Of a stretch of DNA of 48,802 nucleotides, positions 1,668 through 47,334 are shown one piece after another (positions within the stretch are counted from its first letter, which is position 1; every line of letters begins with the position of its first letter). The notes under the pieces were generated by a model. That model worked only from the letters and a program-made list of their open reading frames with translations, ran no database searches and was not told the origin of the DNA. The DNA is from a virus (Duplodnaviria; Heunggongvirae; Uroviricota; Caudoviricetes): the IMG/VR virus record IMGVR_UViG_2718218136_000008, positions 1 to 48,802 of that record; one strand, given 5' to 3'. The position numbers were made by a program, and so were the translations under genes.

Positions 1668-2765
1668 ATGGCGTACTATAACATAGAGAAACGACTAAAA
1701 TCCGATGGCACACCACGCTATCGCTGTAATGTGATTATCAAAGAAAAAGGTGTTATCACTTACAGGGAAAGCAAAACATTCCCTAAACATGCTCATGCCA
1801 AAACATGGGGCGCACAGAAAGTGATGGAATTAGATCTATATGGCATTCCATCATCAAATGCTGTTGACGGACTTACAGTCCGTGACTTACTACACAAATA
1901 TTTAAATGACCCAAATGCCGGAGGTAAAGCAGGCCGTACTAAAAGATATGTGCTGGAACTGCTTATGGATAGTGACATCTCCGCGATCAAACTATCTGAA
2001 CTGACAGAAAATGACGTAATTGAACATTGCAGGCTAAGAAACAACGCTGGTGCAGGCCCAGCAACAGTCAGCCACGATGTTAGTTATCTTGGCAGTGTTC
2101 TGGATGCGGCAAAACCTGTATACGGAATCAATTACACATCAAACCCGGCGAAAAGCGCTCGTCCATATCTACTTAAACTCGGTTTGATTGGTAAATCAAA
2201 CCGTCGTAATCGTAGACCAGCATCTGATGAACTGAACATGCTCATTGAAGGCCTTCAACAACGATCTACTCATAAATGCTCAAAAATTCCGTTCGTTGAT
2301 ATCCTCAAATTTTCTGTGTGGTCCTGTATGCGAATCGGAGAAGTATGCCGGTTACGATGGGAAGATCTCGACCAGGAACAAAAATCTATACTAGTAAGAG
2401 ACAGGAAAGATCCACGTAAAAAGGAAGGCAACCATATGAAAGTTGCCTTGCTTGGGGAAGCCTGGGATATCGTCCAGCGACAACCCAAAAAATCAGAATT
2501 CATTTTTCCATATAACAGCACTTCTGTTACCGCAGGATTTCAGAGGGTAAGAAGCAAATTAGGTATTAAAGATCTGAGATACCATGATTTGCGTAGAGAA
2601 GGGGCAAGTCGCTTATTTGAGGCTGGTTTTAGTATTGAGGAAGTCGCTCAGGTTACAGGGCATCGTTCATTAAACGTGCTATGGCAGGTATATACCGAAC
2701 TGTATCCGAAATCTTTACATAATCGTTTTGAAGAACTCCAAAGGAGCAGAAATAAGACCTCTTGA
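1668..2765 (+). CDS. int: tyrosine-type integrase (dusA-targeting)
   Basis: 365-aa ORF with C-terminal tyrosine recombinase region (RYHDLRREGASR...HRSLNVLWQVY); GAGG RBS; adjacent to att site. Confidence 0.9.
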   Translation: MAYYNIEKRLKSDGTPRYRCNVIIKEKGVITYRESKTFPKHAHAKTWGAQKVMELDLYGIPSSNAVDGLTVRDLLHKYLNDPNAGGKAGRTKRYVLELLMDSDISAIKLSELTENDVIEHCRLRNNAGAGPATVSHDVSYLGSVLDAAKPVYGINYTSNPAKSARPYLLKLGLIGKSNRRNRRPASDELNMLIEGLQQRSTHKCSKIPFVDILKFSVWSCMRIGEVCRLRWEDLDQEQKSILVRDRKDPRKKEGNHMKVALLGEAWDIVQRQPKKSEFIFPYNSTSVTAGFQRVRSKLGIKDLRYHDLRREGASRLFEAGFSIEEVAQVTGHRSLNVLWQVYTELYPKSLHNRFEELQRSRNKTS

Positions 2766-2793
2766 CACTGTTTATCCATACAGTTAAAAATAA

Positions 2794-2813
2794 TACTGTA
2801 TACAAATACAGTG
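2794..2813. promoter_or_regulatory. LexA (SOS) box overlapping the dinI-like promoter
   Basis: TACTGTATACAAATACAGTG fits CTGT-N8-ACAG; TTGACA at 2762..2767 upstream. Confidence 0.5.
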
Positions 2814-2825
2814 TAGGGGACTTTT

Positions 2826-3074
2826 ATGCGTATTGAAATCTGCATAGCCAAAGAAAAAATGACTAAAATGCCAACCGGTGCTGTGGATGCGTTAAAGGAA
2901 GAATTAACCCGACGCATCAGTAAACGTTATGACGATGTAGAAGTGATCGTAAAAGCCACCAGCAACGATGGCCTTTCTGTTACGCGCACCGCTGATAAAG
3001 ATTCAGCTAAAACTTTTGTTCAGGAGACTCTGAAAGATACCTGGGAGTCTGCTGACGAGTGGTTTGTTCATTAA
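2826..3074 (+). CDS. dinI: DinI-family DNA-damage-inducible protein
   Basis: 82-aa [13 protein letters not shown]...[16 protein letters not shown], resembles DinI (~81 aa) especially at the C-terminus; LexA box upstream; GGGGA RBS. Confidence 0.8.
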
Positions 3075-3105
3075 GTTCATCATCTCTGGACACCATTCAC
3101 TTGTA

Positions 3106-3135
3106 TTGACTTTAAGATCATTAAATTGTAATAAT
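3106..3135 (+). promoter_or_regulatory. sigma70-like promoter for the leader/SLATT-like/RT operon
   Basis: TTGACT (3106..3111), 18-bp spacer, AATAAT (3130..3135); predicted start just before GGGGCAGG at 3146. Confidence 0.4.
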
Positions 3136-3142
3136 TCAAAGG

Positions 3143-3296
3143 GATGGGGCAGGTTTTTCCTCTTGCGCATGCAAGGGCGGCTCTGATAATGAACAGTAAT
3201 ATTTTACTGTTGAGCTTATGCTCACTGATCCTGCCGGGCAGGATGTTCAACGGTTCCAATATATCCTGCCCCTTCCGCTTTTAAAAAGGATCTTTT
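3143..3296 (+). ncRNA. structured 5' leader / candidate non-coding RNA of the RT module
   Basis: GGGGCAGG (3146..3153) is the inverted repeat of CCTGCCCC (3265..3272); hairpins at 3164..3177, 3192..3211 (8-bp stem), 3211..3222; palindrome ATCCTGCC-G-GGCAGGAT at 3228..3244; no ORF. Confidence 0.3.
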
Positions 3297-3848
3297 ATGC
3301 ATGACAATATTTGGTTTACATATAAAGCACGTATCCAAGCGCACCATCGACTAGAATGGCTTGAAAAACACTCTCAATTTATCCTCGTTTGGTATGCTAT
3401 ATTGAGTGCGGTACTTTCAATTGTAACGTTGCGATTTCCAAAGGTTCTAGGAGATAATACAGATGTCGTTGCGGCGATACTTTCAGTGGCTCTACTGGGT
3501 ATTTCTCTGATCGTATCTAACCTAGATTTTCGTGGTCGAGCAATAGCCATGAGAAGGAATTATATTGCACTACAGCGACTCTATTTTGACATTACCACCA
3601 GTCAACAGTTATCTCTTGAACAGAAAGAAAAATATTTTAATTTGCTCAATGAGGTTGAGAATCACCGTGACATAGATGATAAAATTTCAAGGGTAACTCA
3701 AGTTGGACTTAAGACGAGGATCCCCACACAAAAAGAAAAAATAATTGTTATTTTATGGATATTACTTCGAATATTTATTACTGCCGCACTTTATATACTC
3801 CCATTAATATATCTTTGGATTGACTATGACTGCAAGCAGAATTTTTAA
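3297..3848 (+). CDS. small membrane protein, SLATT-like (N-terminal helix, two TM helices, helical region, C-terminal hydrophobic helix)
   Basis: 183-aa ORF, AAGGA RBS; hydrophobic segments FILVWYAILSAVLSIVTL, VVAAILSVALLGISLIVSNL, IIVILWILLRIFITAALYILPLIYLWI; 3' end overlaps the RT gene by 23 nt; low GC. Confidence 0.6.
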   Translation: MHDNIWFTYKARIQAHHRLEWLEKHSQFILVWYAILSAVLSIVTLRFPKVLGDNTDVVAAILSVALLGISLIVSNLDFRGRAIAMRRNYIALQRLYFDITTSQQLSLEQKEKYFNLLNEVENHRDIDDKISRVTQVGLKTRIPTQKEKIIVILWILLRIFITAALYILPLIYLWIDYDCKQNF

Positions 3849-5196
3849 AAAGTCATTCTCGAAAAAAAATCTTCTAAAAGTATACTCTGAAAAAATCAAA
3901 GAATCAGGAGCGATTGGCATAGATCGGATTCGCCCATCAAAACTTGATTTGACAATAAAAAATGAGATCACTTTCATTTTTGAAAAGGTTAATTCTGGCA
4001 ATTACAAATTTACAGCATATAAAGAAAAATTAATATCTAAAGGCGCTAACTCTACACCCAGACAGATTTCCATACCAACTGCTAGGGACAGAATTACTCT
4101 TAGAGCTCTCTGTGAATGCCTTACGGAAATATATCCTAAGTCCAGATTAAAACTACCACATACAGTAATTGACTCATTGAAAGAAGCATTAAACAACAGT
4201 CTATATGCTGAATATGCAAAAATAGATCTTAAAAGTTTCTATCCTTCAATTGAACATAAATTGATAATTAATGCAATAAAAAATAAAATTAGAAAAAAAG
4301 AAATTAGACAGTTAATAACATCATCATTAATCGTGCCTACTGTAAGTGGAACCACAGGAAGCAAAGGTATCCCTAATAATACCAGAGGAGTACCTCAGGG
4401 ATTAGCGATATCAAACATTTTAGCTGAAATATCACTATCTAATTTCGATGATGAAATCAATAAAATGCATGACATATGGTACATGCGATACGTTGATGAC
4501 ATTCTTATTTTAACACCAAAATATCAAGCAACAAAAATAGCTTCTCATATCATTGATAAGCTTCAATCATTAAATTTAAACCCACATCCATTAAATGAAG
4601 AGAACTCAAAATCCAAAGTAGGCAGCTTGGATGAAAGTTTCAACTTTTTGGGCTACCACATAAAAAATCGAGAATTATTGATAAAACATGAGAGCATTCT
4701 TAGATTTGAGTCATCCTTAGCAAAAATTTTTACTGCATATAGACACGCTCTACTACAAGCTAAAAATAAGCGCGATAAAGAACGAGCTGTTGCATATTGT
4801 CAGTGGAAACTAAATCTTAGAATTACGGGATGTGTGTTTGAAGGTAAACGATTGGGATGGGTATCGTACTTCTCACAAATAACGTCAACAGCTCAACTTC
4901 GAGCTGTTAATCATACGATCAATAATCTTATCCGCCGATTCGGCCTTTCATCAGAAATAAAACCAAAGTCTTTGATTAAAACTTTCTATGAACTCCGCAG
5001 GGGTAGAGCGGAGACTTTTAAATACATACCTAACTTTGACAATCTACATATATCTCAGAAACGAGAAATTGTTTCTATGTGGATAGGGAAAGAGAATGAA
5101 AAAAAACTTAGCAATAGTGAAATAGAGAGAAAATTTAAATTTAAAATTGCGAAATCAGTAAAAGAGCTTGAAGAGGACATTTCAGGGATATCATAG
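3826..5196 (+). CDS. reverse transcriptase (retron/UG-DRT-like prokaryotic RT)
   Basis: 456 aa from ATG 3826; RT motifs RQISIPTARDRITLRAL, DLKSFYPSI, GVPQGLAISNILAEISL, YMRYVDDILIL (YVDD), FNFLGYHI; ~180-aa C-terminal extension; low GC. Confidence 0.85.
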   Translation: MTASRIFKKSFSKKNLLKVYSEKIKESGAIGIDRIRPSKLDLTIKNEITFIFEKVNSGNYKFTAYKEKLISKGANSTPRQISIPTARDRITLRALCECLTEIYPKSRLKLPHTVIDSLKEALNNSLYAEYAKIDLKSFYPSIEHKLIINAIKNKIRKKEIRQLITSSLIVPTVSGTTGSKGIPNNTRGVPQGLAISNILAEISLSNFDDEINKMHDIWYMRYVDDILILTPKYQATKIASHIIDKLQSLNLNPHPLNEENSKSKVGSLDESFNFLGYHIKNRELLIKHESILRFESSLAKIFTAYRHALLQAKNKRDKERAVAYCQWKLNLRITGCVFEGKRLGWVSYFSQITSTAQLRAVNHTINNLIRRFGLSSEIKPKSLIKTFYELRRGRAETFKYIPNFDNLHISQKREIVSMWIGKENEKKLSNSEIERKFKFKIAKSVKELEEDISGIS

Positions 5197-5249
5197 ATAT
5201 GTAATCCATTAAATCCTTTATATATAAAGCAATAAACACACTATTTAAA

Positions 5250-5294
5250 TTCACAAATCAGCCGCAGTATCCTGCCATGACAAGTTGCTGCGGC
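5250..5294 (-). terminator. hairpin downstream of tfa (late-operon terminator candidate)
   Basis: GCCGCAG/CTGCGGC stem (5261..5267 / 5288..5294) with 20-nt loop, followed on the minus strand by a U-rich tract. Confidence 0.3.
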
Positions 5295-5308
5295 ATATCA
5301 CAAAACGA

Positions 5309-5893
5309 TTACTCCATAACAGGGACCGCAGGCCACTCAATATCAGGTGCAGTTGATGTATCAACACGGTTCAGCAACACCCGATACTTCTTCCAGGCTT
5401 CCAGCAACGAGTTTTCTTCCTCCGTTGCGATCTCCAGATCTACAGCATCCTGAAGTGGCGCTATATGCTCACTGGCTACCTGCATCAGGCTGTTTTTTGT
5501 TTCTTCCGCCTCCCGGATCCGGAACAGTTTTTCTGCTTCCGTATCCTTCACCCAGGCTGTGCCGTTCCACTTCTGAAACTCCCCTTCCGGGGATAACCAG
5601 GTAACATTTTCCGGTAACGGACCGAGTTCAGAAATAAATAACGCGTCCCCTGACGCTACGTCATAAACCGTTTTACCCCGATGGTCTTCAACGAGATGCC
5701 ACGATGCCTCATCACTGTTGAAAACAGCCACAAAGCCAGCCGGAATATCTGGCGGTGCAATATAGGTACTGTTTGCTGGCAGACCTGTATGAGGCGGAAT
5801 ATATGCGTCACCTTCACCAATAAATTCATTAGTTCCGGTCAGCAGATTATAAATTTTTATGGTCCGTGGTTGTTCACTCATTCTGAATGCCAT
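5309..5893 (-). CDS. tfa: tail fiber assembly protein
   Basis: 194-aa [21 protein letters not shown]..., closely matches recalled lambda Tfa; TAATG overlap with stf stop. Confidence 0.9.
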
Positions 5894-8800
5894 TATGCAA
5901 GCCTCACAATATAGTTAAATGCGATGTTTTTGACGGTGTTTTCCGCGTTACCCGCAGCGTTAACGGTGATGGTATGTCCATGTGAACCAATCGCAACGGA
6001 GTGCGTATGAGCACCAATACCGACAGTATGCGCGTGTGCACCTGCAGATGCTGCTGTGCCGGACAGTGAGTGGCTATGATTACCATCTGTACTGGTATTC
6101 GCTAACCACCCCGTAGACATACCTACTGAGCCTTGTACACCCCAGGTATTTTGACCTGAGCTTGTATAACCATATTGATAAGTATCTTTAAAAACACTGG
6201 GGTTAAATCGACGGCCATCTCTATGGCTGTGATTACCAGCTGCATTCGTGCTGCCACTTAAACTATGGGTATGCGCACCAGTGTTATTCGTGGATTTAGT
6301 GCCGTAATCAAACGACGATGTGGTTTTCGTCCCCAAATCAGTACTGGATGCGCTGGCGCTGTGGGTATGCGATTTTATGCCGTCCTGTTCCTGAGACAAT
6401 ACGGCACGACCACTGGCGGGCTTGCCCTTAATCGTCCAGCCACGCATATCAGGGATCACGCCTGACGGATAAGCGGCTGCAAGTTTCGGGTAGGCAGATT
6501 TGTCAAAAGTCTGCCCCTGCATCAGGGCATAACCAGACGGAACGGTATCTGATGGCCACGGGATTGGTGCGCCGACTGGGTAGCTTTCTGGTGGAAGATT
6601 TTTCGAGGTATAAACTTCTGCCCAGTCTTCCTCAAAACCATAACCGTCTCTTGAAGAACGGTAGAACAGACCACCATTTCTGTAATGCGCCTTCATCTGC
6701 AAGGTCCGGCAACTTCCGACTCCGGTATAGAAGTTAACCAGAATATAGCTGTCGCCAGAGCGGGTGACATTATAAGCGCCTGATTCGGCATTCCAGGGAA
6801 CGCCACCATCCGCATCGGCATATGTATCCGTTGCCCTTCTGGCAAAAGCAGCCACATGCGCGGCGGTTAAAGTAATATCTTTGGAACCATCAAACTCAAC
6901 ACCAGAAACCCGTCTTGGCGTTTGCAGCTTTGTTGCTGTTAATGCATTACCGTTCAGACTTGCGGACAGTTTGGTTCCAATAACCAGTTCGCCGGTTGCG
7001 TTATCAATAGCAAACGGTCTTAATGTATTCCATCCACCATAAACATCACCTTGATTGGTAAGCAGCAGGTAAGTTTTAGCGCCATCATTACGCCATAATG
7101 CCCCATACTCCCCACCTATCATTCGAATCTGATTACCACCACGCGCTACAATTTCGTCTGTGGCAAAAAGTTTTTTGCACGACAAGTTATCGTTAACGAT
7201 TAACGAATGAGACTCATAAAAACCACGCCCACTCTTAAAATCAAGGATAACGTCCGCCGCGATACATTCAGTCGCTGGATTTGTTGCCCCAAACTTATAG
7301 GTCGTATCATTAACAACGAGATCAGCACCAGGTGCGGATATTGACAGGCCATCTTCGATAAACGCAAAAACAGGGAAAGCAGCGCCATCAACATAGAACA
7401 CAGAGCGCAAATCATCGCCCTTATTACTCATCATTATTGAGTGGATGGCTCGTTCATTGTTTTGATATTGCCAGAACATTCCATAAGCATAACGCCCCCT
7501 GTCAGTCCAGCCACCAGGCATAACAAATCCGTTAAACTCGCAGTTATTCATCGGATCGCCTGCGGTTCGCGTTGCCGTGGTGATAATGACCCTTGATGCC
7601 AGTTCGCTTACTGAGCCAGCAGAACGCATAACAACAACAGGGTAATATTTTCCAGATGTTGCACCTGCAGGAGCGTTAACCCGCACATAACGCATACCAC
7701 GCTTATCAGCAAAGTCTGTTTTACTGACCGCGTTAATGTTGTTCAGGAAGCGTCCCTTATCGGGTATATCAGCGCCGTTCTGGTCTTTCTGCAGACGTTT
7801 CTCTGCATTGTCATAGGCTGATTTTACTGCCTTTGGCGTTGCCGCCAGCGTTTCAGACGTACTGTTGGTCGCACTGCTGAGCTGTACTATCCCCTTTTTC
7901 GTCGTACTTGCATCCTCAAGCGCCACGGCGGATGCAATATCCTCTGCCCGTTTTGCCGCTGTCTCGGCGCGCGTTGCCGCGGATTCCGCCGTACTTTTGC
8001 TCTGTGCTGCCGCCGTCGCACTGCCAGCTGCCTCTGTCGCCTTCGTGGATGCTGTCGTGGCGCTGCCCTTCGCTGCGGACGCTTGTCTGGTCGCCTCATC
8101 TTTTGAAGCAGACGCCGATGATGCCGATGACGCCGCCGAACTGGCGGACGATGCGGCAGCCGTTTTTGAGGATTCTGCGCTGGTTTCCGACGCTTTCGCG
8201 TTCGTCTCGGATGTCTTCGCTGCGGAAGCAGACCTTGCTGCTGCGCTGGCCTGTTCAGTGGCTTCGCCAGCCTTCGTTGTGGCTGTTGAAGCAGACGATG
8301 CGGCACTTTCTGCCGATTTTCCGGCGGCGGTGGCACTGGCTGAGGCCTGCCCGGCACTTGTTGACGCGGCACTGGCAGACGACGCAGCCGCTGTTTTTGA
8401 GCCTGCCGCAGCCGAGGCGCTCTGTCCCGCTGCCGTTTCAGAAGACCTGGCGTTTGTCTCAGACGTCTTTGCCGCCTTCGCGGAATTGCCTGCCGCCGTT
8501 GCCGAGGAAGCGGCACTACTGGCGCTTGATGATGCGTTCGTTTCTGATGATTTCGCTGCCTCTTTTGAGGCCGCCGCATCCCGGGCTGAGGTGGCTGCTT
8601 CTGACGCCTTCGTGGTCGCGGCGGATGCAGAAGTGGCTGCTGATTGTTGTGACGCTGCCGCATTCGTTTCTGACGTTTTCGCCGCACCGGCACTGGTAGC
8701 TGCCGCGCTTTTTGAGGACTCTGCAGCAGCAGCACTTTTCGATGCTTCACTGGCCTTTGTTGATGCCGTTCCTGCGCTGGAAGATGCTGACTGAGCCGAC

Positions 8801-9297
8801 GACGCGGCCTGTCCGGCTGACGTGCTGGCTGCGCGTGCTGAGCCTGCAGCATCAGTCGCATGGGTTGCCGCCTCACGGGCTGATGTGCTGGCATCGCTGG
8901 CTGACTTCTTCGCGGCTGCCGTGTTCTGTGCCACCGCGGACGCGTTACGCGCCACCTCTTCCACCATCAGTTCAAAACGGCGCAGTGCCTCAGGACGGGC
9001 ATCATCCTCCGTCATGGCACCGAGAAAATCATTCAGCGTACCGGGTCGGGAATCTTCATACACGGTGATGGTCCCGGCATGTGACGGCGGGAATCCTTCC
9101 ACCAACAGAATAACGCTGTACTGACCGTACTCAACGTCCATGCTGTAACGCCCGGCTTCATCCGGATTTTCTGAGGCCAGCGTGTTCACCACCACCGTGG
9201 TGCTGTTACGTTTTGCTTTCAGCTGGATTGTGCAGTTCTGTACCGGTTTTCCTGTGCCGTCTTTCAGTACACCTGAAATCTTTACTGCCATATTCAC
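5893..9297 (-). CDS. stf: side tail fiber protein with long Ala/Ser/Thr-rich repeat region
   Basis: 1134-aa ORF; low-complexity fibre repeats; His-rich C-terminal receptor-binding region; followed by tfa. Confidence 0.85.
7865..8900. repeat. low-complexity coding repeats within stf
   Basis: Degenerate GC-rich repeats encoding A/S/T-rich protein; generate long spurious ORFs in other frames. Confidence 0.5.
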
Positions 9298-43668: not shown

Positions 43669-44574
43669 CTATATTTCCAGACACCTGTTATCACTTAACC
43701 CATTACTGGCTTGCTGCCGTAGATATTCCCGTGGCGAGCGATAACCCAGTGCACTATGCGGATGCCATTCGTTATAATGCTCGAATGCCTCTGCAAGGTT
43801 CTTTGCTGCCGTTAACCCGTCTGGTTTGGGCATGACACTGATGTAGTCACGCTTTATCGTTTTCACGAAGCTCTCTGCTATGCCGTTACTCTCCGGACTC
43901 CGCACCGCCGTGTTCTTCGGTTCAAGCCCCAACATCCGGGCAAACTGCCGTGTTTCATTAGCCCGGTAGCATGAACCATTATCCGTCAGCCACTCTACTG
44001 GAGACGCCGGAAGCTCGTTGCCGAAACGGCGTTCCACCGCTCCCAGCATGACGTCCTGTACTGTTTCACTGTTGAAGCCGCCCGTAGTGACCGCCCAGTG
44101 CAGTGCCTCACGGTCACAGCAGTCCAGCGCGAACGTGACTCGCAGTTTTTCTCCGTTATCACAGCGGAACTCGAACCCGTCAGAGCACCATCGCTGATTA
44201 CTTTCTTTCACAGCCACTCTGCCGGTATGTGCCCGTTTCGATGGCGGTACAGCGGGTTTTCGCTCAAGCAACAGCGCATTCTGGCGCATGATCCGGTAAA
44301 TACGTTTGGCATTGATCGCAGGCATACCATCAAGTTCGGCCTGTCTGCGAAGCAGCGCCCATACCCGACGATAACCATATGTGGGCAGCTCTCCGATAAC
44401 ATGGTGTATACGGAGAAGCACATCCGTATCATCTGAGTGACGGCTGCGGCGACCATCTTTCCAGTCATCGGTTCGTCTGAGAATGACGTGCAACTGCGCA
44501 CGCGACACCCGGAGACAACGGCTGACTAAGCTTACTCCCCATCCCCGGGCAATAAGGGCGCGTGCGCTATCCAC
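43669..44574 (-). CDS. insD: IS2 transposase InsD (orfB)
   Basis: 301-aa ORF matching recalled IS2 InsD (…DDE integrase region). Confidence 0.9.
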
Positions 44575-44993: not shown

Positions 44994-45194
44994 CGCTAAG
45001 GGGGCGCTATCCGGTGAATTTTCAGAAACTACGTTTATAAGCTGCCTGGAATGCTTTGGCGATGATGATTGCGATACCTGTGACGGGAGCGGACGTATTG
45101 AAATTAAAGTGCCAGTCACGTGGTCGACCATAAAATCTATCTGGGATAAAGGTATCGAGTATTTTGCAGCAAAACCATCACAAGAGGTGAAGTG

Positions 45195-45767
45195 ATGAAC
45201 AACTTAATGATCGACCTTGAGACGATGGGGAAAAATAAGGATGCACCGATCGTTTCCATTGGCGCGGTGTTCTTCACTCCAGAAACCGGAGACATCGGAC
45301 AAGAATTCTATACGGTTGTTAGCCTGGACAGTGCTATGAAGCTAGGAGCTACACCTGACGGCGATACCATCCTGTGGTGGTTGAAACAAAGCCCTGAAGC
45401 ACGAGCTGCAATCTGTATTGATGATACTTTGTCGATCAGCGATGCTCTCTCAGAACTAAATCATTTCATTAACCGGCACGCAGACAATACGAAATATTTA
45501 AAAGTCTGGGGTAACGGAGCCACCTTCGACAACGTAATTTTACGTGGAGCTTATGAGCGAGCAGGACAAATCTGCCCGTGGGCATACTGGAATGACCACG
45601 ATGTACGCACGATCGTTACGCTTGGGCGTTCCATCGGATTCGACCCCAAAATGGACATGCCTTTCGATGGCGAACGGCACAACGCCCTGGCTGATGCCCG
45701 TCATCAGGCAAAATATGTTTCCGCTATCTGGCAGAAATTAATTCCTGCCACCAGCACAGAATTATGA
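45195..45767 (+). CDS. DnaQ-like 3'-5' exonuclease (DEDD family)
   Basis: 190 aa from ATG 45195; motifs MIDLETMG, WGNGATFD, HNALADA. Confidence 0.8.
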   Translation: MNNLMIDLETMGKNKDAPIVSIGAVFFTPETGDIGQEFYTVVSLDSAMKLGATPDGDTILWWLKQSPEARAAICIDDTLSISDALSELNHFINRHADNTKYLKVWGNGATFDNVILRGAYERAGQICPWAYWNDHDVRTIVTLGRSIGFDPKMDMPFDGERHNALADARHQAKYVSAIWQKLIPATSTEL

Positions 45768-46345: not shown

Positions 46346-46765
46346 TTACTCATCATCAATAGATGATACGCAATATTTATTTTTAAATTTAAGGTTCTTT
46401 GGCGTAACTTCATCAGATATATCAAAACCGTCCAGAATTCTATTGAATGTAGCTTCTGGCATATCATCATGAACGGAAATCTCACCCGATCGCTGCTTTC
46501 TAACCATGTTATCCACTCGCCAAATTATAGCTTCAGCGTAAACAACATAACTTGGATGCTTGATAAAGCGATGATCACCAGAATTCAAGACGCAAGACGG
46601 ATCGTGGGGGACACCATCCTTGATACTAGAAATATTAACAACTAAAACACAATAACAATCGTTAACGGGGTAATAAACAGGATCATTACAAATCACATGA
46701 AGATGATTGCATGGCCCAGTTGGGGCAAGCACAGTTCCTTTCCTGTATGGCTGATAATCCGTCAT
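46346..46765 (-). CDS. hypothetical protein, candidate toxin/effector partner of the Panacea-like gene
   Basis: 139-aa ORF; start overlaps upstream gene stop (ATGA); no recognised motif; low GC. Confidence 0.5.
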   Translation of the reverse strand: MTDYQPYRKGTVLAPTGPCNHLHVICNDPVYYPVNDCYCVLVVNISSIKDGVPHDPSCVLNSGDHRFIKHPSYVVYAEAIIWRVDNMVRKQRSGEISVHDDMPEATFNRILDGFDISDEVTPKNLKFKNKYCVSSIDDE

Positions 46766-47334
46766 GATAATTGCAAAGAAAATTCCTTAAGTTTCTGAGA
46801 TTCTTCCATTTTGCCAATTATACGATTAGCCTCATCCTCGCTTTTACCCTCACTGATCAGCATTTCTTTCAGGTCTATAGGCTTACGAGAATTGCCAGGA
46901 TTGTGCCACTCTGGACAAACGCTTTCTAAATGCGTCATGTTTGCGAGATCAAATCGGTTCATATGCCCATACAGAGAATAGATTTCATCTAAAATCCGGA
47001 TATCTGCACGGCTCAACTCATCAAAGACCTCGTCTGCATCCATTTCCCTCGGATCTGAACGCAACAACACATCATGCCCGTTCGTCTCTATCAAGTTGTA
47101 CCAGTAGTCACCAATGCCTTCAGCCTTACCACGAATCAAGTTCAGCGTATTCGACATGACTGGACCAAATTTCATAGAGTAAAGGCTATCTTCGCCGATC
47201 ATCCTGCCATGCTTCAAAATCGACTTGCGGTTAGACAGATAGAGCAGCTTCATCAATTTCAGATATGCCATGCGCCCACCTCGCTTAAGAAGTAGGTATG
47301 CAGCCATTTGAGCTACTTTTTCTTCGCAAAACAT
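46762..47334 (-). CDS. Panacea-domain (DUF4065)-like protein, candidate antitoxin
   Basis: 190-aa ORF with KLMKLLYLSNR...FGPV pattern recalled for Panacea/SocA-like proteins; GAGG RBS; low GC. Confidence 0.5.
   Translation of the reverse strand: MFCEEKVAQMAAYLLLKRGGRMAYLKLMKLLYLSNRKSILKHGRMIGEDSLYSMKFGPVMSNTLNLIRGKAEGIGDYWYNLIETNGHDVLLRSDPREMDADEVFDELSRADIRILDEIYSLYGHMNRFDLANMTHLESVCPEWHNPGNSRKPIDLKEMLISEGKSEDEANRIIGKMEESQKLKEFSLQLS

Follow-up and report, generated by a model that had tools for sequence, protein, structure and literature searches.

The segment at positions 3106–5196 of the window (the whole stretch of 48,802 nucleotides that was analysed) very probably represents a complete DRT10 anti-phage system of the UG17-A type, a moron of a lambdoid prophage that is inserted at dusA in E. 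coli. The UG17 group had been defined by 2022, the name DRT10 dates from 2025, and the system has been described in two preprints (PMC12632851; 10.64898/2026.04.29.721553). The combination of a UG17 reverse transcriptase (RT), a SLATT protein and a non-coding RNA (ncRNA) is an experimentally shown defence system, including a 98%-identical E. coli homologue, and defence, ncRNA binding, tandem repeats, priming by Ser456 and the genetics of the A-B-A' template have been demonstrated for DRT10 homologues (PMC12632851). The module is real but not new, because it is a near-identical allele of a laboratory-tested system; the locus is thus an already known system, and its natural template variant is the sole increment. 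A sequence-only reading of this DNA had proposed that an RT acts with a SLATT membrane effector and with a structured RNA as a DRT/Abi-type anti-phage module, which agrees with the full-length UG17 RT, the RT-associated SLATT_5 protein and the defence shown in the 98%-identical homologue. Its further suggestion of a possibly unclassified variant does not hold, as the profile matches place the module in UG17/DRT10 (RT_UG17, 1.1e-158; RTasSLATT, 1.5e-56).

The promoter, RNA, SLATT_5 and RT genes form a low-GC block between the int/dinI genes and the tail-fibre genes of the prophage at dusA (Table 1). Its GC content is 0.29–0.37 over positions 3600–5200, compared with 0.45–0.63 in the flanks, and both the low-GC block in the variable region between int and tfa and the nearby SOS-controlled dinI homologue are as the sequence-only reading had described them. 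In E. coli, four prophage loci, which lie at three different integration sites, have dinI alongside the module. The gene was considered as a fourth component and rejected, because it accompanies only the copies in E. coli lambdoid prophages and none of the loci of other genera. No terminator was found between the LexA-controlled dinI and the ncRNA promoter. The record NZ_CP015085.1 matches window positions 3075–5300 exactly, the distal end of its prophage not being colinear with the window. Among deposited phage genomes there was no DNA match and a single weak protein match (25% identity), and the module could not be linked to an isolated phage.

Table 1. Features of the DRT10 locus and its neighbours (window coordinates).
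Feature	Position	Strand	Basis or remark
Tyrosine integrase gene	1668–2765		Neighbour gene
LexA boxes (n = 2)	2768–2783, 2796–2811		Exact CTGT-N8-ACAG consensus, ahead of dinI
DinI-family gene	2826–3074	+	Context, outside DRT10
Putative promoter of the DRT10 ncRNA, probably also of the SLATT-RT mRNA	3106–3135	+	Consensus scan
DRT10 ncRNA	3142–3278	+	137 nt; numbering as in Eco3DRT10 ncRNA
SL1 basal stem	3142–3153 paired with 3265–3276	+	
SL2	3160–3177	+	
SL3	3192–3211	+	
SL4	3212–3223	+	
SL5, template boundary element	3228–3244	+	
Template loop	3245–3264	+	
Predicted template, A-B = CAAC-GGUUC	3248–3256	+	ncRNA 107–115; positional homology to Eco3DRT10
Realignment segment A', CAAU	3257–3260	+	ncRNA 116–119; same as Eco3 A'
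SLATT_5 membrane protein, presumed pore-forming effector	3297–3848	+	183 aa; profile matches
UG17 (DRT10) RT	3826–5196 (from ATG)	+	456 aa; profile match and homology
Tail-fibre assembly gene	5309–5893	−	Neighbour gene

Profile comparison of the RT, which the sequence-only reading had recommended, gave a full-length match to PADLOC RT_UG17 (527 bits; profile positions 1–429 of 429), with Drt3a as the runner-up at 130 bits; Pfam RVT_1 also matches. The ATG start is the choice of both RefSeq and Tang et al., an upstream TTG giving an alternative form of 458 aa (3820–5196). In the ATG form, the gene overlaps the 3' end of the SLATT gene by 23 nt (3826–3848) and encodes an intact YVDD motif (codons 4489–4500), so that the size, motif and overlap read earlier from the letters are all present. 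Residues Y222, V223, D224, D225, and S456 are invariant in an alignment of 18 homologues with 59–83% identity. The last codon (TCA, 5191–5193) encodes Ser456, which is predicted to be the protein-priming residue by analogy with Eco3DRT10, in which S456 primes (PMC12632851). The RT is identical to that of Eco3DRT10 (OKX54664.1) at 391 of the 399 available residues (98%), and to that of the E1648 allele at 448 of 458. The alternative that the locus is what is left of a group II intron or of some other mobile retroelement, with a maturase-type RT and no defence role, has next to no likelihood: group_II_RT_mat is the second-best NCBIfam match (4.5e-42) and one GenBank record reads "Maturase-related protein", but the score of 144 bits falls below the curated cutoff of 300, and neither an intron RNA nor any other Rfam family was matched in positions 2600–5500 at E up to 1. 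Across relatives, moreover, the RT is paired with a SLATT gene and an ncRNA, and a genome has no more than two copies, each in the ncRNA-SLATT-RT arrangement, which is not the pattern of a dispersed mobile intron. The intron reading was rejected on the sub-cutoff profile score and the absence of a matching RNA family.

The 183-aa protein, described earlier as having a SLATT-like topology and proposed for comparison with SLATT models, matches PADLOC RTasSLATT and exceeds the curated cutoffs of both Pfam SLATT_5 (1.3e-28; 100 bits against 29.5) and NCBIfam SLATT_5 (136 bits against 60). Three hydrophobic segments are centred at about residues 36, 66, and 160. A search with tblastn located a SLATT homologue directly upstream of the RT in loci L005–L030 and in the majority of more distant ones.

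Upstream of these genes, the strong promoter suggested by the sequence-only reading corresponds to a promoter-like site with TTGACT, an 18-nt spacer, and the extended −10 element TGtAATAAT (10 of 12 consensus matches, with the TG upstream), from which transcription is predicted to start at about position 3142. The site is without variation in four E. coli alleles, and a similar extended −10 element (TGTAGAAT, TGTAAGAT) ends 6–8 nt before ncRNA position 1 in most relatives from other genera. SLATT and RT may be transcribed through the ncRNA from this common promoter; such co-transcription is suggested only by the lack of space for a further promoter.

Between this promoter and the SLATT gene lies an RNA with a minimum free energy (MFE) of −57.2 kcal/mol (z, −4.6 to −4.8), and none of 200 shuffled sequences was as stable. 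Its ends were taken from the published 137-nt RIP-seq species, with C107, U110, C116, A117, and U119 as anchors, and it aligns without gaps to the ncRNA of the E1648 allele, which has the Eco3 template, with agreeing residue numbering. Covariation was assessed by a structure-blind MAFFT alignment of 27 sequences followed by RNAalifold, which recovered five helices; compensatory changes affect 17 of the 34 pairs. In this alignment, 97.9% of the cells were paired, compared with 48–57% with slid partners, and none of 500 shuffles reached the observed covariation score. Matches to the covariance model were found upstream of SLATT in all loci whose RT is at least 50% identical. Pairs between the template loop and positions 38–44, present in the single-sequence MFE structure, were left out of the model because they are absent from the RNAalifold consensus. 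The structured leader of about 150 nt noticed earlier is therefore present, but as the 137-nt DRT10 ncRNA: by analogy with Eco3DRT10, it is a discrete RT-binding RNA that would carry the reverse-transcription template, more than a simple 5' UTR.

The fold of this RNA also bears on whether the locus could be a retron, in which the RT uses an msr/msd RNA to make msDNA, and infection frees an effector with two transmembrane segments. The logic of RT, small membrane protein, and structured RNA is superficially the same, several database records name homologues "retron-type reverse transcriptase", and Rousset et al. at first labelled a related RT-SLATT locus a putative retron. The RNA here, however, consists of five local hairpins within one basal stem and a short A-B-A' template, without the a1/a2 repeats of msr/msd, and no Rfam retron msr family was matched at E up to 1. 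The RT scores 58.4 bits with NCBIfam retron_St85_RT against a cutoff of 235, no retron RT model is among the best 25 PADLOC matches listed, of which RT_UG17 reaches 527 bits, and NAIKN and ITG replace the retron signatures NAxxH and VTG, which the sequence-only reading had rightly failed to see. In addition, close homologues yield protein-primed tandem repeats and not branched msDNA (PMC12632851). The retron candidate is refuted by the RT profile below cutoff and the missing motifs and msr/msd, and its probability is negligible.

The pattern CAA(C)-GGUUC-CAA(U) at positions 3248–3260 lies just after SL5, in the same position as A-B-A' of Eco3DRT10, with CAACGGUUC|CAAU here and CAAUGAUUC|CAAU in Eco3, a difference of two substitutions (U110C and A112G). 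The Eco3DRT10 template CAAUGAUUC is found verbatim in the E1648 allele (exactly CAATGATTCCAAT), both proteins of which are 98% identical to those of the window allele; the two E. coli template alleles differ only by U110C and A112G, which retain an imperfect palindrome in the repeat unit (AAUGAUU to AACGGUU). Across the 27 loops, an A-B-A' repeat with an A of at least 4 nt is present in 25, against a mean of 6 and a maximum of 14 after shuffling, the repeat almost always starts with a conserved (U)CAA just 3' of SL5, and the relatives keep the (U)CAA...(U)CAA register. The same template as in the window allele also occurs in Xenorhabdus. From the two template substitutions, therefore, the cDNA unit is predicted to be 5'-GAACCGTTG-3', giving a protein-primed (GAACCGTTG)n instead of (GAATCATTG)n. 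The substitutions reduce the A/A' identity from 4 to 3 nt, and the cDNA 3' end GTTG would re-pair with A' by three Watson–Crick pairs and one dG:rU wobble. In Eco3DRT10, C116G and A117U in A' abolish both repeat synthesis and defence, while the fourth-base change U110A in A is tolerated (PMC12632851).

The same substitutions create a perfect 4-nt register (GUUC-AACG-GUUC), to be set against the canonical 3 identical nt and wobble, so the product could be imprecise. A DRT10 with this variant template might accordingly behave unlike Eco3DRT10, with imprecise or 8-nt (CGTTGAAC)n repeats made via GUUC...GUUC, or with reduced activity. A cryptic re-annealing site makes Eco1DRT10 imprecise (Tang et al., PMC12632851), and imperfect junctions were seen by Sanchez-Nieto et al. 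(10.64898/2026.04.29.721553). We nevertheless consider such behaviour unlikely. Eco3 has a UUC...UUC 8-nt alternative register and yet makes precise 9-nt repeats, which indicates that the SL5-defined boundary dominates; (U)CAA is the register conserved across relatives, and the U110A change is tolerated. Furthermore, this is the majority allele (154 of 188 genomes), which, together with its occurrence in Xenorhabdus, argues for a functional template.

With the canonical 9-nt register, the system would operate as follows, the first six steps having been shown in close homologues and being carried over here on the basis of the 98%-identical Eco3DRT10. A constitutive promoter would produce the 137-nt ncRNA, with transcription running on into SLATT and RT, two genes coupled in translation, and the RT would bind the ncRNA. 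The hydroxyl group of the C-terminal serine of the RT itself would prime DNA synthesis, and the 9-nt template CAACGGUUC, a few nucleotides 3' of SL5, would be copied as far as the SL5 boundary. The nascent 3' end GTTG would then unpair and re-pair with the downstream CAAU, and repeated cycles would lead to long single-stranded tandem repeats, predicted as (GAACCGTTG)n, attached covalently to the RT. The remaining steps are unsettled working models from the literature, derived partly from other DRT10 homologues: the repeat DNA may be held down by host ExoI (SbcB), a phage factor, an SSB-like protein for instance, may upset this balance during infection, and the SLATT protein may then permeabilise the membrane, resulting in abortive infection. 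The two preprints differ as to whether the cDNA goes up or down on infection and whether a second strand is made (PMC12632851; 10.64898/2026.04.29.721553).

Among the known systems, Eco3DRT10 (E. coli 703491, RT OKX54664.1; Tang et al. 2025, PMC12632851) shares with the window the order of ncRNA, SLATT, and RT, the SLATT/RT overlap, A' CAAU, SL1–SL5, the C-terminal Ser456, and YVDD, and differs in its 4-nt A/A' match, which here is 3 nt plus a G:U wobble; the Eco3-template allele E1648 differs from the window by ~2% of amino acids in both proteins. The UG17-A DRT10 of Escherichia sp. E3659 (Sanchez-Nieto et al. 2026, 10.64898/2026.04.29.721553) also has the ncRNA-SLATT-RT order with overlapping genes, a ~143-nt ncRNA with the basal stem SL1, and tandem repeats made on a template with short direct repeats on either side, whereas its template (ACUUAUUACU), its 7-nt AGTAATA repeat, and its ncRNA sequence are different. 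It was in E3659 DRT10, not in the Eco3-like lineage, that SbcB dependence and an SSB-like trigger were demonstrated, and ncRNAs are reported to be subtype-specific in UG17 (10.64898/2026.04.29.721553). The H120 RT-SLATT locus (Rousset et al. 2021), toxic under sbcB repression, is likewise a prophage-borne UG17 RT with SLATT in E. coli, but in the opposite order, RT then SLATT, and belongs to UG17-B according to Sanchez-Nieto et al. (10.64898/2026.04.29.721553). DRT9 (UG28) and DRT2 (UG2) are also class 2 UG RTs, which copy an upstream structured ncRNA repeatedly as template. Like DRT10, DRT9 is protein-primed, and the ncRNAs of the two have similar folds, although DRT9 makes poly-dA from a poly-U template with tyrosine priming, and DRT2 differs in producing a concatemeric gene by rolling-circle copying; the PADLOC scores of the window RT are 69 bits for Drt9 and 85 for Drt2, against 527 for RT_UG17. 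Telomerase (TERT and telomerase RNA) has the same mode of action as DRT10, with a short template, an alignment segment 3' of it, a structured template boundary element on the 5' side, and processive addition of repeats, whereas DRT10 is protein-primed and not chromosome-end-primed, has 456 aa without the accessory TERT domains, and serves in defence.

The module was found in 197 of 5426 complete E. coli genomes (~3.6%), always on the chromosome and in no more than two copies per genome. The template allele of the window is the commoner one, with 154 complete E. coli genomes against 34 with the Eco3 template. The commonest E. coli allele, including that of ST131-type strains, therefore has a template unlike the one studied, and the repeat DNA in most natural carriers is probably GAACCGTTG, not GAATCATTG. 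If SLATT activation, ExoI sensitivity, or the evasion of phage counter-measures depends on the sequence of the repeat DNA or on its pairing with itself, the E. coli prophages would carry functionally distinct DRT10 "repeat alleles". The absence of a terminator between dinI and the ncRNA promoter means that SOS induction could read from dinI into the module, tying its dosage to DNA damage or prophage induction. The joint reading, in which the template polymorphism is selected and not neutral and, separately, SOS transcription reads through from dinI into the module, is nonetheless highly doubtful. The module moves as a dinI-linked moron of lambdoid prophages with several integration sites. DRT10 itself is of note as a bacterial RT of compact size whose products are telomerase-like tandem repeats; an ancestry common with TERT has been proposed. 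These points have already been argued in the literature for a 98%-identical system, to which this locus adds modestly; it opens no new question, and its use lies in annotation and in the choice of alleles to test.

The RT of the module matched the PADLOC RT_UG17 profile from end to end (1.1e-158; 527 bits; profile positions 1–429 of 429), with Drt3a as the second-best PADLOC model at 130 bits, and the membrane protein matched the RT-associated SLATT profile of PADLOC (1.5e-56) and exceeded the curated SLATT_5 cutoffs in both Pfam and NCBIfam. Exactly this UG17–SLATT architecture has been characterised as the defence system DRT10 in two preprints, one by Tang et al. 2025 (PMC12632851) and the other by Sanchez-Nieto et al. 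2026 (10.64898/2026.04.29.721553). The sequence-only reading was thus correct in recognising a DRT-type defence module with a SLATT-like membrane protein; the module is, rather than the unclassified variant considered there, the known system DRT10, as an allele 98% identical to Eco3DRT10 (Eco3), which has been dissected experimentally. It is not a retron, as also considered there: the retron profile scored far below its cutoff (58 against 235), as did the group II intron profile (144 against 300). An Rfam search found no family covering the module region.

The ORF list bore out the described gene pair, in which the RT gene (ATG form) overlaps the upstream SLATT gene by 23 nt and encodes an intact YVDD catalytic motif. 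The proposed promoter and structured leader correspond to a promoter-like site and to a promoter-to-SLATT RNA folding at −57 kcal/mol (z ~ −4.7), with 0 of 200 shuffled sequences as stable. GC content is 0.29–0.37 over the SLATT and RT genes versus 0.45–0.63 in both flanks, and the module lies among genes for a tyrosine integrase, a DinI-family protein and tail-fibre assembly, in agreement with the reported low GC and placement between int and tfa beside dinI. The Eco3 RT studied by Tang et al. (OKX54664.1; PMC12632851) is annotated with two extra N-terminal residues, as in the TTG form of the window RT, and the two are identical at 391 of 399 residues over the portion compared. The priming serine of Eco3 is its last residue (S458 in the record, S456 once corrected); the window RT likewise terminates in serine, and this serine and YVDD are invariant in 18 homologues of 59–83% identity.

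Features of the module and of the surrounding prophage (window numbering)
Feature	Position	Strand	Details
LexA boxes	2768–2783 and 2796–2811		exact CTGT-N8-ACAG, tandem, overlapping the dinI promoter
DinI-family gene	2826–3074
Promoter-like site	3106–3135		TTGACT, 18-nt spacer, TG-n-AATAAT; 10/12 consensus matches
DRT10 ncRNA	3142–3278		137 nt; gap-free placement by published numbering
Near-invariant stretch	3177–3191		GGCGGYUCURAUAA, single-stranded between SL2 and SL3
Near-invariant stretch	3240–3250		GGGAUGUUCAA, single-stranded, at/after 3' side of SL5
A–B template	3248–3256		CAACGGUUC
Template differences from Eco3	3251 and 3253		U110C and A112G
A' realignment site	3257–3260		CAAU
SLATT gene	3297–3848	+	183-aa ORF
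RT gene	3826 (ATG) or 3820 (TTG) to 5196		456 or 458 aa
C-terminal serine codon of RT	5191–5193
Rfam IS009 match	5352–5500	−	168 bits (gathering score, 117); within tail-fibre assembly gene
Tail-fibre gene	5893–9297	−	1134 aa; long Ala/Ser/Thr-rich low-complexity region, raising GC to ~0.62
Spurious long ORFs, other frames	7865–8894		due to the low-complexity region
IS3-type transposase	43669–44574	−	rve, rve_3, HTH_21; near distal prophage end
Rv2179c-like 3'-5' exoribonuclease	45192–45767	+	Pfam 3e-75; near distal prophage end
139-aa ORF	46346–46765	−	no match in Pfam or PADLOC
SocA/Panacea-domain protein	46762–47334	−	Pfam 1.8e-18; 4-nt overlap with 139-aa ORF

The intergenic region was aligned across four E. 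coli alleles, among which strain E1648 has the exact published Eco3 template and realignment site, CAATGATTC-CAAT, and the ncRNA was anchored on the numbering of Tang et al. (template C107–C115; U110; C116, A117 and U119 in A'; PMC12632851), placing its position 1 at 7 nt past the −10 element. A covariance model made from the E. coli ncRNA alleles gave a full-length, same-strand match just upstream of SLATT in every fetched locus with an RT at least 50% identical, including those of Xenorhabdus, Photorhabdus, Buttiauxella, many Pseudomonas, Stenotrophomonas and Bordetella. No match was found in the fetched alphaproteobacterial loci (RT identity, 31–34%), which agrees with the reported subtype specificity of DRT10 ncRNAs. 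The RNAalifold consensus of 27 ncRNAs, from a structure-blind MAFFT alignment, comprises four hairpins within a basal stem; 17 of its 34 pairs show compensatory changes (11.0 on average in shuffles, none of 500 reaching 17), the covariation score was attained by 0 of 500 shuffles, and 97.9% of cells form a standard pair (48–57% with partners slid). In most relatives the extended −10 element ends 6–8 nt ahead of the first basal-stem nucleotide, and the SLATT ribosome-binding site lies ~14–38 nt 3' of the ncRNA; from these spacings, the ncRNA start is probably a primary transcription start and SLATT–RT is probably transcribed through the ncRNA. Two single-stranded stretches almost invariant across genera are candidate RT-contact or template-boundary elements.

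The loop after SL5 opens with the second of these stretches, GGGAUGUUCAA, and is variable beyond it. In 25 of the 27 relatives (shuffled mean, 6; maximum, 14) this loop contains a direct repeat, 4 nt or longer, at a spacing of 5–14 nt. The repeat, nearly always beginning at the conserved (U)CAA, is the A–B–A' hallmark that Tang et al. found necessary and sufficient for repeat addition (PMC12632851). Relative to E1648, the window template is changed at two positions; Eco3 has CAAUGAUUC as A–B, followed in both by CAAU. These changes turn AAUGAUU into AACGGUU and keep a 3+3 imperfect palindrome around G111 of the repeat unit, which may be chance. According to Tang et al. (PMC12632851), fourth-base changes in A are tolerated and copied into the product, and most B positions are free to vary. 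With C110, the cDNA end GTTG would re-pair with CAAU through three Watson–Crick pairs and one dG:rU wobble, and the predicted product is therefore protein-primed, single-stranded (GAACCGTTG)n. The window loop also contains a perfect 4-nt repeat, GUUC-AACG-GUUC, that could set an 8-nt register; this is less likely, because the analogous UUC register of Eco3 does not keep it from making precise 9-nt repeats, and because it is the CAA register that relatives conserve.

The 50-nt probes used across the template were designed to share with the other allele no exact word of 28 nt, the length that megablast requires. Among complete genomes, 154 were found to carry the window allele and 34 the Eco3 allele, making the former the majority form; their sum, 188, is also the count of genomes in which the module is near full length. 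A further single mismatch in 72 of the 154 is presumably the SL5-loop G-to-A change known from strain p11A. An identical template occurs in one Xenorhabdus locus, and CAACGG may be ancestral, since many relatives have it.

The module is present in 197 of 5426 complete E. coli genomes, chromosomal in every case, and was not found in the deposited phage genomes searched. The 2.2-kb block is 100% identical in E. coli O25b:H4 (NZ_CP015085.1) and two more genomes; NZ_CP015085.1 matches the window exactly over 3075–5300 and is not colinear near the distal prophage end. In all four loci examined, the module follows dinI within a lambdoid prophage, and three integration sites are represented: dusA, prfC and yecD. 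In strains A1_181, E1648 and p11A, the dinI–ncRNA–SLATT–RT block occupies the int-proximal prophage end at three different chromosomal sites (dusA, prfC, yecD/aspS) and the adjoining tail-fibre genes vary from locus to locus; a macro-domain protein is encoded next to tfa in one of them, and p11A has a SLATT protein 89% identical to that of the window and a frameshifted dinI. Being absent from all non-E. coli loci compared, dinI is ruled out as a DRT10 component and is E. coli prophage backbone. Its suggested SOS control is supported by two exact LexA-box matches preceding it (three CTGT-N8-ACAG matches in the full 48.8-kb window versus 0.7 expected), and SOS-driven read-through into the module would be possible, as no terminator-like site was found between dinI and the ncRNA promoter. 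Elsewhere in the prophage, the IS009 match probably reflects a candidate sRNA family defined on prophage tfa sequence, and the two overlapping genes at the far end are a candidate PanA-type antitoxin–toxin pair.

The mechanism downstream of DNA synthesis is a working model drawn from the literature. Defence needs RT, SLATT and ncRNA (PMC12632851; 10.64898/2026.04.29.721553). Tang et al. observed single-stranded cDNA that is constitutive and drops on infection, and proposed that it holds SLATT in check (PMC12632851); Sanchez-Nieto et al. reported DNA accumulating on infection, a second strand removed by SbcB, lethality when SbcB is absent, and triggering by an SSB-like phage factor (10.64898/2026.04.29.721553). 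In strain H120, a related RT–SLATT prophage locus with a different gene order renders sbcB essential. In the core common to these accounts, repeat-DNA synthesis by RT–ncRNA would be constitutive, the state of the repeat DNA would be modulated by host ExoI and phage ssDNA-binding factors, and SLATT would sense this state and abort the infection at the membrane. The sole new element of the window module is its natural, population-dominant template variant, which should write a different 9-nt repeat.
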